Assembly (NCBI GenBank): GCA_033764315.1
Contig: JANRJA010000075.1
Coordinates: forward strand, 86,402 to 150,401
Length of the DNA: 64,000 nucleotides
Source of the DNA: Oculatellaceae cyanobacterium bins.114
GTDB lineage: Bacteria; Cyanobacteriota; Cyanobacteriia; Elainellales; Elainellaceae
Direction: 5' to 3'
The notes beneath the pieces were generated by a model. It made no database searches. It was not told where the DNA came from and was given only the letters and a program-made list of their open reading frames with translations. The position numbers were made by a program, and so were the translations under genes. Positions 1,245 to 7,456 of this stretch are shown here, piece after piece; within the stretch, counting starts at the first letter, position 1; every line of letters begins with the position of its first letter.

Positions 1245-2084
1245 TTACCCTCTGAAAAACAATTCTGTAGCAGGCCCTTCGTCTTGAGGAGGTAGACCTA
1301 ACTGGGCAGATAGTTCGGTGTCATACAAAGCCTCTGTCCAATTACGAGCAACTTTGATCTGCTCAGGCGTGAGGTGCTCTGCGATACGCAAATCAGCCCC
1401 TTGCAAATTGGCTCCTAACAAATTGGCTCCTTTTAGATTAGTCGCTCTTAACTTAGCATCCGTCAGATCTGCTGCCTTGAGGTTTGTGTTTTCAAGATTG
1501 GCCCCCAGCAAATTTGCCTCCAGCAAATTAGCGGCTCTCAGGTCTGCCTTTTGCAGGTCAGCTCGTTGCAGGTTGGCTCGGCAGAGGTTGGCGGCTCTCA
1601 GGTCTGCCTTTTGCAAATTTGCCTCTAGTAGGTCAGCTCGTTGCAAGTTGGCATTCAACAAGATGGCTTTTCGCAGGTTAATTTCACGCAGATCTGCTTT
1701 AGGAGCGTCAAGCCCTCGCAAACTGATGCCTTCTTCATTTAGATCTTGCAATGCTTGAATGCGGGCGTAACTGTTACGGCGACCGTGAGCTGCATCAATC
1801 ACTTTCCAAGCTTCATAGCGCGATCGCTTCTGGCGTTCGGGTCCCTCTTTAAAGTAAATAAAGACGGCAACTAGAATACTGACGCTTTCAATGATGTCTA
1901 GAAAACTATGAATTCCCAGCCAACTAATAAATGTTTTGCCAACTGGGGTGTTTTCTAACAACCGAATGATAGCTACTAAAAACAGCACTTCTAGAGCCGT
2001 AGGGAGGCGATTCAGCCAATACAGCACCCAAGCTCGACTGCGTTTGAGCCAGAGATACTTCTGTTCTGGAGATTCTTCCGTCAC
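1245..2084 (-). CDS. membrane-anchored pentapeptide repeat protein
   Basis: Two N-terminal hydrophobic segments, RYEAW...RIQALQDL linker, then A(D/N)LxxA repeats; GTG at 2084 overlaps the upstream stop, suggesting translational coupling. Confidence 0.85.
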   Translation of the reverse strand: MTEESPEQKYLWLKRSRAWVLYWLNRLPTALEVLFLVAIIRLLENTPVGKTFISWLGIHSFLDIIESVSILVAVFIYFKEGPERQKRSRYEAWKVIDAAHGRRNSYARIQALQDLNEEGISLRGLDAPKADLREINLRKAILLNANLQRADLLEANLQKADLRAANLCRANLQRADLQKADLRAANLLEANLLGANLENTNLKAADLTDAKLRATNLKGANLLGANLQGADLRIAEHLTPEQIKVARNWTEALYDTELSAQLGLPPQDEGPATELFFRG

Positions 2085-3538
2085 TAGCGACCTCTTGCAG
2101 GAATAGAGTGGGGTTGAACCCACGGAATAGTGGTATCAGTTGCCAAATATTGAGCCACAGCGCGGGCTCCGTTACGATTCAGGTGACTGGGATCTGCAAA
2201 ATAATGGTTTTGAGTAGGCCATTGGTGCATTAAATCTCGAAACAGAAACCCTTCTCTAGCCGCTAATCGCTGCATATATTGCCGAAATTGTTGTTCATGA
2301 GCCGTCCGCACCGGGTCAAGATATTCCTGGGTCAGGGGCAAGCTCACAAATATTAGGGGAATCCGTTGACTGCGGGCAAATTGGGCAACGGCGATCGCGG
2401 CTGTGGTTTGTTCTCCCTCTAACCGAAAGGGAGTGTAGTTGCTGTCATAGCGACCTGAAACTCTTGGAAACTGACGATAATAAGTGGCTGGGTTGAACTC
2501 AGCGGGCACAGACTGAAAGCCACTGCCACTTAAATCAGCCGCAATAGGTGGATGGCTAGACCGCAGGGGCGGGATTGGAAGAATTGGTTCGGCGGGCGTC
2601 TGGTAGGGAGGAGGTTGCAGCAAATAGGACAACGAAGTACAAGATGAAGCTAAGCCGAACGGGTTTGGCTGAGATCCAGCAAGGGGGAGCAGATGGGTGT
2701 CCTCTGCCCCTACAGTAGGGGTAAGGGACGGCATCTCTAAAGCATGATTGAGTGGCTCAGCTTGATGTTGAGCATTGACATAAGCACTGTAGGCTGCCGC
2801 ATAGTTCATTGCAGCAGGCGGAACAACACAAATTTCTTGCTCAAGCTCGATCGCTGGCAGAGGAATGTAGCGAATGGGGCGATCGCCTGTTGCTAGACGT
2901 TTATAACCTTCTGAGGCAAGGATGCCATTGTAAGTCAGGTCTATCCGCGCACTATTAAAGGCTCGTGATCCATCGGCCCAAATAATCAGACGTGGCAATT
3001 GGTTAGGAGTCAGAACCCGACGCAGTAGCAAATCAACAACCTGTGCTGTTGCTCCGTTGACTCCAAAGTTGTAGATGCGGAGGTTGGAAAGCCCTCTCGC
3101 CGCTAATGCTTGTTGCAGAACCTCTGGATCGATCCCTTGGAGCGATCGCGAACTGCCCACGATCAAGACATCAGGGGGGCCGGAGGTAGCTAAATAATGG
3201 GCGTAAATCCGAATCTGTTGATCGAGTCGTTGGCTATTGAAAGTTGGAAAGTTAGGAACCAATACCACCGGGCTAAATTCTGGGAATGGTGTTCCTACAT
3301 CGTTTACTGCCGTTATCGAAGCTGACTGCGATATTGACGGTTGAGCAACAAGCGTCTGCTCCTGTGAGGAGACCCCTCTCGCCGCAGTGCTAAACAGCAG
3401 GGGCACCAAAAGCGCAATGATTGTCCCACTTTGTCTAACGATCGCCGCCAGAGATTTATCTGTAACCGTTAGACGGGGTTGTGTTGCTTGAGAGAGTAAC
3501 ATCCTAAAGCTAGGAGAGGGAGTCTCCTGTGAGATCAT
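2084..3538 (-). CDS. SGNH-hydrolase-like exported protein (DUF1574-like)
   Basis: VLIVGSSRS, YNFGVNGAT and FADPSHLN motifs; hydrophobic N-terminal segment. Confidence 0.7.
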   Translation of the reverse strand: MISQETPSPSFRMLLSQATQPRLTVTDKSLAAIVRQSGTIIALLVPLLFSTAARGVSSQEQTLVAQPSISQSASITAVNDVGTPFPEFSPVVLVPNFPTFNSQRLDQQIRIYAHYLATSGPPDVLIVGSSRSLQGIDPEVLQQALAARGLSNLRIYNFGVNGATAQVVDLLLRRVLTPNQLPRLIIWADGSRAFNSARIDLTYNGILASEGYKRLATGDRPIRYIPLPAIELEQEICVVPPAAMNYAAAYSAYVNAQHQAEPLNHALEMPSLTPTVGAEDTHLLPLAGSQPNPFGLASSCTSLSYLLQPPPYQTPAEPILPIPPLRSSHPPIAADLSGSGFQSVPAEFNPATYYRQFPRVSGRYDSNYTPFRLEGEQTTAAIAVAQFARSQRIPLIFVSLPLTQEYLDPVRTAHEQQFRQYMQRLAAREGFLFRDLMHQWPTQNHYFADPSHLNRNGARAVAQYLATDTTIPWVQPHSIPARGR

Positions 3539-3681
3539 AGCGGCTCAAATCACGTGTGAGAAGTGTAGAGTTAAAGCGGCGATCGCCCATTTACATCGAT
3601 CGCTCACATCATATGCAATGCATGCGATCGACTCACCTATTCTCATCAACGAGTTGCCCTATGGTCAACCATTCTTCTGGG

Positions 3682-4581
3682 TTAATCTTCTTTGAGACCA
3701 ACCACCATTTGCAAAATGACCGGATCACCTCCCGTTTGGTGATACCGATCTGCCCAGGCTCGAATGACTTCATCTAATTCTTCTAGTGCCTGATCAATGC
3801 AATCACTCGGAATGTCTAATTCCTCCAAGATTCGCACAAATCTAGGTTGTCGGTCTGCCCAGTTCTTCATCATGCGGAAGTAACGAGCCGTGTCTTCTAC
3901 CATGATGTAGGTGCGCTCTTCTTCATCTGCTGGAGAATAAGAAGCTCGTGTCAGAGCATAGAATGGCATTCCCCAAGGAGAATCAATCCGGGTTACGGTT
4001 CCAGAGTAAATTAGGCGGCGTTTAATGTGCTCCGCCAACGCTTCACTCAACGGCAGCTTACGGTCTTCAGGCAAATCTTCCTGCGAACGAGTGTGGAGAA
4101 ACTCAATAATGTCCATGAACTGGAACGCATTGATCAATTGAGCGTCTGGCAAATTAGGAGGGAGTTTCTCTTCGATTTGCCGCTTCTCATCTTGAGTCAG
4201 ACTTGTCCCAGGAATGCGAGGTCGTCCGGGTTGCCAGGGATATTGCTCTAACCAGACATAAGGCAGTTGGATCAGATAGCGAGGCTCTTGAGAACCCAGC
4301 ATCTTTAACAGCTTGCCTTCTGTTAATGCCTGCCGAACTTCTTCAACAATGACTTTGACTCGCTTAGGTTCAATGTGATGTAAGTGCCCCGTCATCCGCA
4401 GGTTTTGTTCCTGTTCTAGATACGTCATATAAATGGCACATTTTGCCGCTGTTGCGGCTGCATCTAAAAAAGCCCCGTGTCGATGCCCTCCAGTGCGCAT
4501 AGCACTAAATGCGAGGTACAGCATGATCTGATCCATTGCACTTGGGCTGAGGCGTTTAATCAGATCGAGGTCGTTGGTCAT
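3682..4581 (-). CDS. hetR: heterocyst differentiation master regulator HetR
   Basis: 299 aa; N-terminus [46 protein letters not shown] and [15 protein letters not shown] are diagnostic of HetR. Confidence 0.98.
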
Positions 4582-4972
4582 TTTAGGTGCGATCGCAAAT
4601 ATGATGAACAGTACTTTTTAAAGTTAGAGCAGTAATCTCTCTGTAGGTTTAGAGCTGACTCTTGAAACACCCTTAGCTTAGATCATCCTGATACATCAGG
4701 CACAGCTTAAACACTGATTTTTCCAACACACAACACTTTCCGTGTACCCGTTTAGCTAAGTCAACCGTAAAATCGACTTTCTTAAAGAACTGGGCTAAGT
4801 CAATACCTTCTGTATTCAGCGATTGTACTGATCCCAGTCAGAAGAAAGATTAGATCAGCCTGTGTGAGTATCACATTCTACAATCTATAGCCAAATCTCT
4901 AAAAACCAGTCAATATGCACCTAAATTAACTGAATTTGAGGGTAATTAGCAAAAAGCTGAGATCTGAGGTGA

Positions 4973-6602: not shown

Positions 6603-6712
6603 ACGTGATGTGCAACTTAGAAGTTTAGCTCCCCGGTTTCTCGTGGAGCATTCTTAAAGGGGTCTGACAACCATCACCAAAAACCGGGGATCTGGAGGAA
6701 ATCGCACACCAG
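6603..6712 (+). repeat. family A dispersed element, diverged copy
   Basis: GATGTGCAACTTAGA.GTTTAG.TCCCCGGTT...AACCGGGGATCTGG...TCGCACAC ends shared with 39994-40106. Confidence 0.8.
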
Positions 6713-6715
6713 GTA

Positions 6716-6893
6716 TTAGAGGATATCTGAGAAGTTTTTGGCGGTTAAAACCGCGACTACAAGAACCAAGTCCGCCGTTGCGGACTCAAGCCAATCCAGG
6801 CTTTTTGTAACCTGCGGAGGCAGGTTTTGCTCATGTAGCTGTGACTTTAGTCGCCAATGCTACCTAAATCTAGCCTTTTAAGACACCCTCTTA
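6716..6893. repeat. MITE-like element with imperfect 19 bp terminal inverted repeats enclosing a multi-hairpin repeat
   Basis: TTAGAGGATATCTGAGAAG versus reverse complement of the right end TAAGAGGGTGTCTTAAAAG (14/19); inner hairpins AGTCCGC..GCGGACT and AACCTGC..GCAGGTT. Confidence 0.6.
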
Positions 6894-6928
6894 GATGGAT
6901 ATTGAGGGTGGCTGTGTTTGTTGCTGAA

Positions 6929-7456
6929 TTAAGCAAGTTCAGAGGTTGCAATTGTGCCATCGGGCATGATGGTTTGCTCAAAAATCGCTTTGCTCAAATC
7001 AGTGTCAGATAGGTTGGCGTCTTTAAGATTTGTCCGACTCAAGTTAGCAGCGGCTAAATTTGCTCCGCTTAAATCGGCTCCTACGAGACAGGCTCCACTC
7101 AGATTAGCCCGACTCAAGTTGGCTTTGCTTAAGTTGGCTCGCCATAGATTGGCATCTGTGAGATTAGCTGCACTGAGGTCAGCCCGATTGAGTCGAGCAT
7201 TATTAAGATTTGCACTCTTTAAATTACTGCTGCTTAAGCCTACATCTGCTAACCAGGCTCCAGCAAAATTGGCCTTTTCGAGGTTGGGAGCAATGATCTT
7301 GATTTGCCCTGCTTTAAAAACAACTCGGGTAAACGTGCGCTTGCCTTTGGCGTATTGCTCGATAATGTAAGGCACCGAAATGGGGGCGATCGCTTCTGGC
7401 TGTTCTAGCGGTAAAGAATTTGCTGGTGTTGCGAGGTTTAAGTCGGAATTTTGCAT
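6929..7456 (-). CDS. pentapeptide repeat protein
   Basis: YAKGKRTF cap, A(N/D)LSxA repeats, IMPDG C-cap. Confidence 0.9.
   Translation of the reverse strand: MQNSDLNLATPANSLPLEQPEAIAPISVPYIIEQYAKGKRTFTRVVFKAGQIKIIAPNLEKANFAGAWLADVGLSSSNLKSANLNNARLNRADLSAANLTDANLWRANLSKANLSRANLSGACLVGADLSGANLAAANLSRTNLKDANLSDTDLSKAIFEQTIMPDGTIATSELA

Follow-up and report, generated by a model that had tools for sequence, protein, structure and literature searches.

The genes considered here surround a patX–hetR pair in a cyanobacterial stretch of 64,000 nt (hereafter the window), taken from contig JANRJA010000075.1 of assembly GCA_033764315.1, which holds 6.64 Mb in 251 contigs and is 90.7% complete. The region under study runs from position 1245 to position 7456 of the window and contains, together with this pair, a gene for a protein of 484 amino acids (aa) and three genes for pentapeptide-repeat proteins, termed PRP_A, PRP_B and PRP_C. 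A sequence-only reading of this DNA had proposed that the activator HetR, an RGSGR peptide inhibitor and a HetL-like immunity protein are physically clustered at this site, possibly as a patterning module in a lineage without heterocysts. Throughout, the label G denotes genomes, L denotes loci containing hetR or PRP_B and C denotes contigs; G000 is the source genome itself, G001 a genome of the same genus and G011 a genome of another genus, whose hetR locus is L007. The features of the region, with window coordinates, are as follows.

1245–2123, minus strand: PRP_A, a membrane-anchored pentapeptide-repeat protein of 292 aa (Pfam Pentapeptide, 8.5e-27).
2084–3538, minus strand: a 484-aa protein with an N-terminal hydrophobic anchor and a C-terminal part weakly resembling DUF1574/SGNH hydrolases (Pfam DUF1574, 29.9 bits against a cut-off of 29.1).
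3682–4581, minus strand: hetR, 299 aa (NCBIfam HetR equivalog, 584.8 bits against a cut-off of 489).
4973–5176, minus strand: patX, 67 aa with HRGSGR (open reading frame (ORF), motif and full-length alignment to the PatX model).
5509–6390, plus strand: PRP_B, a soluble protein of 293 aa consisting entirely of pentapeptide repeats (Pfam Pentapeptide, 4.7e-98).
6431–6447, plus strand: a terminator-like hairpin 41 bp past the PRP_B stop codon (7 pairs, 5 of them G-C; the scan overall did not exceed shuffled sequence).
6766–6789, minus strand: a terminator-like hairpin downstream of PRP_C (10 pairs, 5 of them G-C; from the same scan).
6929–7456, minus strand: PRP_C, a soluble pentapeptide-repeat protein of 175 aa that converges on PRP_B (Pfam Pentapeptide, 1.4e-29).

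The gene set on which the sequence-only reading was built, namely hetR, the RGSGR peptide gene and the three pentapeptide genes, is thus present in full where that reading had placed it, as judged from the ORF listing and the family scans. On the minus strand the order is patX, hetR, the 484-aa gene and PRP_A. The combined promoter and terminator scan of the locus did not exceed its shuffles, and a search with Rfam at gathering thresholds gave no match in positions 1–12000 of the window.

HetR aligns with its NCBIfam model (NF009718) over positions 1–299 of 299 and carries the Pfam domains Peptidase_S48 (PF03574) and HetR_C (PF18460), the latter constituting the hood domain at residues 219–297. 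Residue R223 falls in an invariant column of an alignment of 36 HetR sequences, the first row of which is the window protein. The patX gene precedes hetR by 391 bp, in the same orientation, and could begin either at a TTG codon, giving 67 aa, or at an ATG at position 5170, giving 65 aa; the ATG is likely to be the start. Its product opens with a hydrophobic, signal-like segment (residues 1–22, Kyte–Doolittle mean of 2.38) and closes with HRGSGR followed by six residues to the C-terminus. Against the PatX family model (NCBIfam NF047413) the protein aligns over residues 3–63 on positions 1–68 of 69, at 23.5 bits and so under the cut-off of 30, the family being short and divergent. Orthologues of patX occur in G001 (99.7 bits) and in L007. 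A 13-position PatS model found no match in the source genome, nor did it find any in control genomes, and it is hence uninformative; NF047414 was considered as a relevant family model and rejected, as it belongs to an unrelated family. A real hetR with an RGSGR peptide gene directly upstream is present, as had been claimed.

Further genes of both types are found in the source genome. A second HetR paralogue, 55% identical to the window protein, is encoded at C217:16013–16888 (locus L093:4933–5904). It has counterparts in G001 and G011 at 54–55% identity and in G032 and G023 at 48%, and it stands after a 704-aa ORF and before ORFs of 251 and 164 aa that by eye resemble methionine sulfoxide reductases. 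A frame containing DRGSGR is located at C217:10767, about 5 kb upstream of this paralogue. The minus strand of C192 carries, around 7256, another small ORF of PatX type; its N-terminus is signal-like, some 14 residues separate YRGSGRR from the stop codon, and neither copy of hetR is adjacent to it.

The lineage to which the pair belongs is most likely non-diazotrophic and devoid of heterocysts. No nifH was found at the model cut-off in this 90.7%-complete assembly, although an incomplete assembly cannot prove absence; the best match, at 218.3 bits against a cut-off of 394.35, is probably a paralogue. The closest HetR loci, at 85–92% identity, come from entries titled Leptolyngbyaceae, Elainellaceae and similar, with Nostocales loci at about 82%. 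Given the lack of a nifH match and the Leptolyngbya-like character of its nearest kin, the organism most likely forms no heterocysts, and the suggestion of a lineage without heterocysts was very probably right.

A patX–hetR pair in such a lineage is already known: according to PMC11298460, citing Elhai and Khudyakov 2018, the pair occurs in almost all filamentous cyanobacteria, and the role of HetR and PatX in filamentous cyanobacteria without heterocysts is there called a mystery. The best described comparison is Leptolyngbya BL0902, which has no nif cluster, carries hetR immediately downstream of patX and possesses three hetR-like ORFs (PMC11298460). The present locus shares with BL0902 a small RG(S/T)GR ORF that directly precedes a co-oriented hetR in a nif-less genome, and the source genome likewise has extra hetR-like paralogues (here one, the 55% identical copy on C217). 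Two differences are apparent. Unlike BL0902-type pairs, the pair described here has no exact DIF1 hexamer (TCCGGA) upstream of patX (PMC7377430, PMC11298460), and here the pair is flanked by pentapeptide genes, of which the available text of PMC11298460 makes no mention. A literature search at the level of titles and abstract openings likewise returned no description of pentapeptide genes flanking hetR.

By analogy with Nostoc, the pair may be expected to work through export of PatX and its cleavage to a hexapeptide that would bind the hood domain of the DNA-binding regulator HetR; export of PatX is reported, as is its processing to HRGTGR by PatP, a periplasmic peptidase (PMC12756182). The PatX–HetR step of this scheme is disputed for Leptolyngbya BL0902, where the patX transcriptome effects looked independent of hetR, and the deletion transcriptomes of that strain suggest that PatX acts largely independently of HetR (PMC11298460).

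The proposal of an immunity protein at this locus drew on HetL (All3740) of Nostoc PCC 7120, which binds HetR at the hood domain and shields it from PatS (PMC7476756). Binding requires R223 of HetR, a residue that PatS binding needs as well, and D151 of HetL, the HetL–HetR interface being derived from a docking model (PMC7476756). All three proteins of the locus are clear members of the pentapeptide-repeat family, with tandem A(D/N)LXX repeats and scores against Pfam PF00805 (cut-off 20.2) of 92.8 bits for PRP_A, 320.5 for PRP_B and 101.6 for PRP_C. In PRP_A, whose gene is the second one after hetR, the repeats are preceded by a strongly hydrophobic stretch (residues 69–92), and PRP_C is soluble. 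PRP_B, which is transcribed divergently from patX across 332 bp, comprises about 45 pentapeptides in a single register and has no hydrophobic segment. Although PRP_B and PRP_C thus resemble HetL in being soluble and made up almost wholly of pentapeptide repeats, all three proteins fall short of the NCBIfam HetL model (NF047416, cut-off 260), PRP_B at 180.7 bits summed over three stretches, PRP_C at 76.1 and PRP_A at 69.6, and a separate HetL orthologue exists in the genus.

Other comparisons lead to the same result. In a six-frame scan of the source genome with the HetL model, the best single stretches scored 96.4 bits (PRP_B), 72.1 (PRP_C) and 68.8 (PRP_A), ranking 18th, 29th and 36th, respectively, of the 67 stretches listed. 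PRP_B is 39% identical to the HetL orthologue of G001, against 41–48% to other paralogues of its own genome; the G001 protein has loop insertions, and the PRP_B alignment is gapped at these. A search of Protein Data Bank (PDB) sequences placed HetL (3DU1) at 102 bits, below designed repeat proteins at 128. The NCBIfam Alr5209 model (113 positions, cut-off 125) is passed by both PRP_C (125.9 bits) and PRP_B (185 bits), but these scores are sums over three to five repeat stretches and reflect repeat content, not orthology. Alr5209 itself (6OMX), Np275/Np276 (2J8K) and the Rfr proteins, all cyanobacterial, have solved structures but no known function, and by sequence they fall in the same repeat fold class as the proteins of the locus. 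PRP_A, PRP_B and PRP_C are therefore best described, from their sequences, as predicted generic pentapeptide beta-helix proteins and not as HetL.

A true HetL is encoded elsewhere in this genus. G001 has one intact HetL orthologue (330.5 bits, C16:89198–89851), its hetR being located on C64 of that genome. The two best HetL matches of the source genome are half-genes on different contigs, one at C33:14506–14796 covering model positions 1–97 (151.4 bits) and the other at C162:121–510 covering positions 89–218 (179.2 bits), and in translation the two halves break at exactly one point of the G001 HetL protein. The final 140 nt of C33 are found again in C34, and the initial 125 nt of C162 have copies at 100% identity in C64 and at about 80% at no fewer than 14 other contig ends. 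Megablast gave no match between the hetL locus of G001 and the contig ends of C33 and C162, and the protein comparison was used instead. The gene is accordingly split between C33:14506–14926 and C162:1–510, with both breaks abutting multi-copy repeat sequence that is found at many other contig ends. The hetL orthologue of this strain thus appears to be unlinked to hetR and interrupted by a repeated element, and the split probably represents a mobile-element insertion in the known protector of HetR.

Among 40 relatives, HetL exceeds the cut-off in 15, and in these it is never on the hetR contig, some of the contigs being short, except in G033, which has one chromosome with the two genes 790 kb apart. 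Two of the 15, G035 and G036 (99% and 96% complete; HetL-family gene at 331.3 and 328.1 bits), gave no hetR match at E 1e-10 or better. The clustering of a HetL-like immunity protein with activator and inhibitor was consequently not borne out, since PRP_A, PRP_B and PRP_C are all non-orthologous to HetL and the genus has a separate, unlinked HetL.

The same follows from the survey of gene order. The comparison set comprised 80 other hetR loci on contigs of one genome per species, amounting to 1.2755 Mb. Pentapeptide ORFs are not enriched near hetR in this set, four being found (in three loci) where 8.3 would be expected at the density of the source genome. A PRP_B-like gene stands beside patX in just one of the 80 loci, L007 of G011. 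The PRP_B orthologue group, defined by reciprocal-best matches of at least 200 bits with the same N-terminal cap, is present in 12 of the 40 relatives, and PRP_B is matched at E 1e-60 or better in 38 genomes of a class-wide sample of 400. Across 41 orthologue sites in 40 other genomes, of which L097 has too little flanking sequence to judge and L088 and L116 are borderline, hetR and patX adjoin PRP_B at two, those of G001 and G011. The neighbours of 10 unlinked PRP_B sites were compared, and none is common to more than three of them.

For the other two genes the linkage is confined to the genus. PRP_A has a hetR-linked orthologue in G001, while in G011 (orthologue at 431.7 bits) and G020 (405.5 bits) it and hetR are on separate contigs, and no PRP_A-like ORF was found in the 80 other hetR loci. 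The G001 neighbour corresponding to PRP_C is 68% identical; the next relatives are at 46–56%, none of them on the hetR contig of its genome, and PRP_C-like genes lie on contigs other than that of hetR in six genomes. In L007 another pentapeptide gene takes the place of PRP_C and converges on PRP_B. This ORF (L007:1560–1976, plus strand, 138 aa) was considered as a PRP_C orthologue and rejected, as it has a signal peptide and its 39% identity is confined to the repeats. Conserved linkage to hetR in relatives is thus largely lacking, being seen for PRP_B at the two sites named above and for PRP_A and PRP_C in the same-genus genome only.

G001 retains the whole order, from an FtsX gene through PRP_A, the 484-aa gene, hetR, patX, PRP_B, PRP_C and a small ORF to genes for a rhomboid-family protein and an SH3/peptidoglycan-binding protein. 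This synteny says little, because the neighbouring genes are 68–97% identical at the protein level, within one genus. The last two of these genes lie beyond PRP_C in the window, the rhomboid-family intramembrane protease gene at 7993–8625 on the minus strand, just past PRP_C, and the SH3/peptidoglycan-binding protein gene at 9359–10465 on the plus strand.

The locus is therefore quite probably an ordinary patX–hetR pair beside generic pentapeptide genes that became juxtaposed with it by chance, and not a patterning module. What stands of the sequence-only reading is the hetR/patX pair and the very probable lack of heterocysts in the lineage; its HetL-like cluster is supported neither by orthology nor by synteny. 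The pair would belong to a non-diazotrophic, most likely non-heterocystous, Leptolyngbya-like filamentous cyanobacterium. The three flanking pentapeptide genes would represent three separate orthologue groups, each sited elsewhere in other genera, which came beside hetR through lineage-specific rearrangement and may be regarded as its recent neighbours. PRP_B would have arrived there no earlier than in the ancestor that this genus shares with one other, and PRP_A and PRP_C within this genus only. If HetL-type protection of HetR is present in the lineage, the likelier agent would be the true HetL orthologue on another contig.

Several observations weigh against chance juxtaposition. With the three proteins as phmmer queries, the 6.64 Mb assembly yields 43 pentapeptide-like ORFs that do not overlap one another, corresponding to 0.04 expected per 6.2 kb, and the three genes within 6.2 kb at this locus are the only triple within 10 kb in the genome. 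Four further pairs of pentapeptide genes within 10 kb occur elsewhere in it (five when two within the triple are counted). The clustering at the locus exceeds uniform scatter for this genome and is unusual there. In G011, a second genus, PRP_B is 71% identical and diverges from patX in the same orientation. PRP_B at 200 bits or more is present in 12 of the 32 relatives with hetR and in none of the eight without it, a distribution that is confounded by kinship, 24 of the 32 belonging to one family. Non-orthology to HetL also leaves room for binding to HetR, because All4303, a second pentapeptide protein of Nostoc PCC 7120, is reported to bind HetR more weakly in a two-hybrid assay (eLife 2020, PMC7476756), and the authors of that study state that specificity is not predictable from sequence (PMC7476756). 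Finally, the interruption of the true hetL in this assembly means that another pentapeptide protein could in principle take its role.

Most of these points bear on the rival that survives best, in which PRP_B is a lineage-specific partner of HetR that would sit on the RGSGR-binding face of the hood and shield HetR from the PatX peptide, as HetL does in Nostoc and All4303 does weakly. Its divergent adjacency to patX in two genera, the restriction of its orthologues to relatives with hetR (kinship notwithstanding), the Nostoc precedent of All4303, a non-HetL pentapeptide protein that binds HetR and so keeps this rival alive, and the interrupted hetL would all be accounted for. We nevertheless regard such a partnership as improbable. 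At 38 of the 40 assessable orthologue sites (41 examined) PRP_B does not adjoin hetR, no pattern of replacement is seen, a true HetL orthologue being present in both genera that show the linkage, and PRP_B is no closer to HetL than to other paralogues.

The intergenic region shared by patX and PRP_B also speaks against this partnership. An inverted repeat resembling a HetR site (GAGGGG-N5-CCCCTC, with up to three mismatches allowed) was absent from the patX/PRP_B and hetR upstream regions; the motif had 26 matches against 20.6 expected, and the one at 6432–6448 is the hairpin after PRP_B. The DIF1 hexamer occurs twice in the window, each time well away from the locus, and is absent from the shared region upstream of patX. 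When the patX/PRP_B intergenic regions of G000, G001 and G011 were aligned, only about 65 nt next to patX proved to be conserved in all three. A complex prediction of two copies of the HetR hood (residues 214–299) with PRP_B scored 0.00, a value that weighs neither way on binding. An extension of this reading holds that PRP_B was recruited beside patX in two genera as a second, HetL-independent shield of HetR against HRGSGR, that inhibitor and protector would be made together, and that PRP_B would be the sole protector left in this strain; there is little likelihood of this scenario either.

A different alternative concerns the other side of hetR, where hetR, the 484-aa gene and PRP_A might be transcribed together and the two membrane proteins encoded after hetR might serve in an envelope function linked to HetR, for example in polysaccharide modification. 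The three genes lie on the same strand, with a gap of 143 bp between hetR and the 484-aa gene and an overlap of 40 bp between the end of the latter and the start of PRP_A, and the scan of the minus strand revealed no terminator-like site separating them. In the 484-aa protein, residues 30–58 form a hydrophobic segment, and the GDSL_2 and AlgX matches lie under their cut-offs. The gene for this protein follows hetR in 10 of the 80 other loci (L001, L003, L005, L006, L012–L014, L018, L019 and L025) and in G001, and it is a more conserved neighbour of hetR than any pentapeptide gene of the locus. This recurrence speaks for such a unit; PRP_A, however, follows the 484-aa gene only in G001, the 80 loci contain no PRP_A-like ORF and the orthologues of G011 and G020 are on other contigs, and no domain match of the 484-aa protein does more than reach its cut-off. 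A HetR-linked envelope unit of this kind is accordingly improbable, at best on a par with a PRP_B partnership.

The full proposal of the sequence-only reading, that all three pentapeptide genes act together with HetR and PatX as a dedicated three-part module, is very improbable indeed, as its sole evidence is the local clustering in the source genome and that of the same genus, where neighbours at 68–97% identity would be expected to keep their order anyway, and the orthologues of each gene are sited elsewhere in other genera.

These results bear on both HetR and HetL. A conserved cluster of activator, inhibitor and protector would have made the role of HetR and PatX in filaments without heterocysts testable, and the survey shows none. 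HetL, in turn, is not confined to hetR-bearing genomes, because G035 and G036 carry it with no hetR match. Its frequency in non-heterocystous relatives (15 of 40), together with its presence in these two genomes in which no hetR was found, calls for caution in regarding HetL as a dedicated heterocyst factor.

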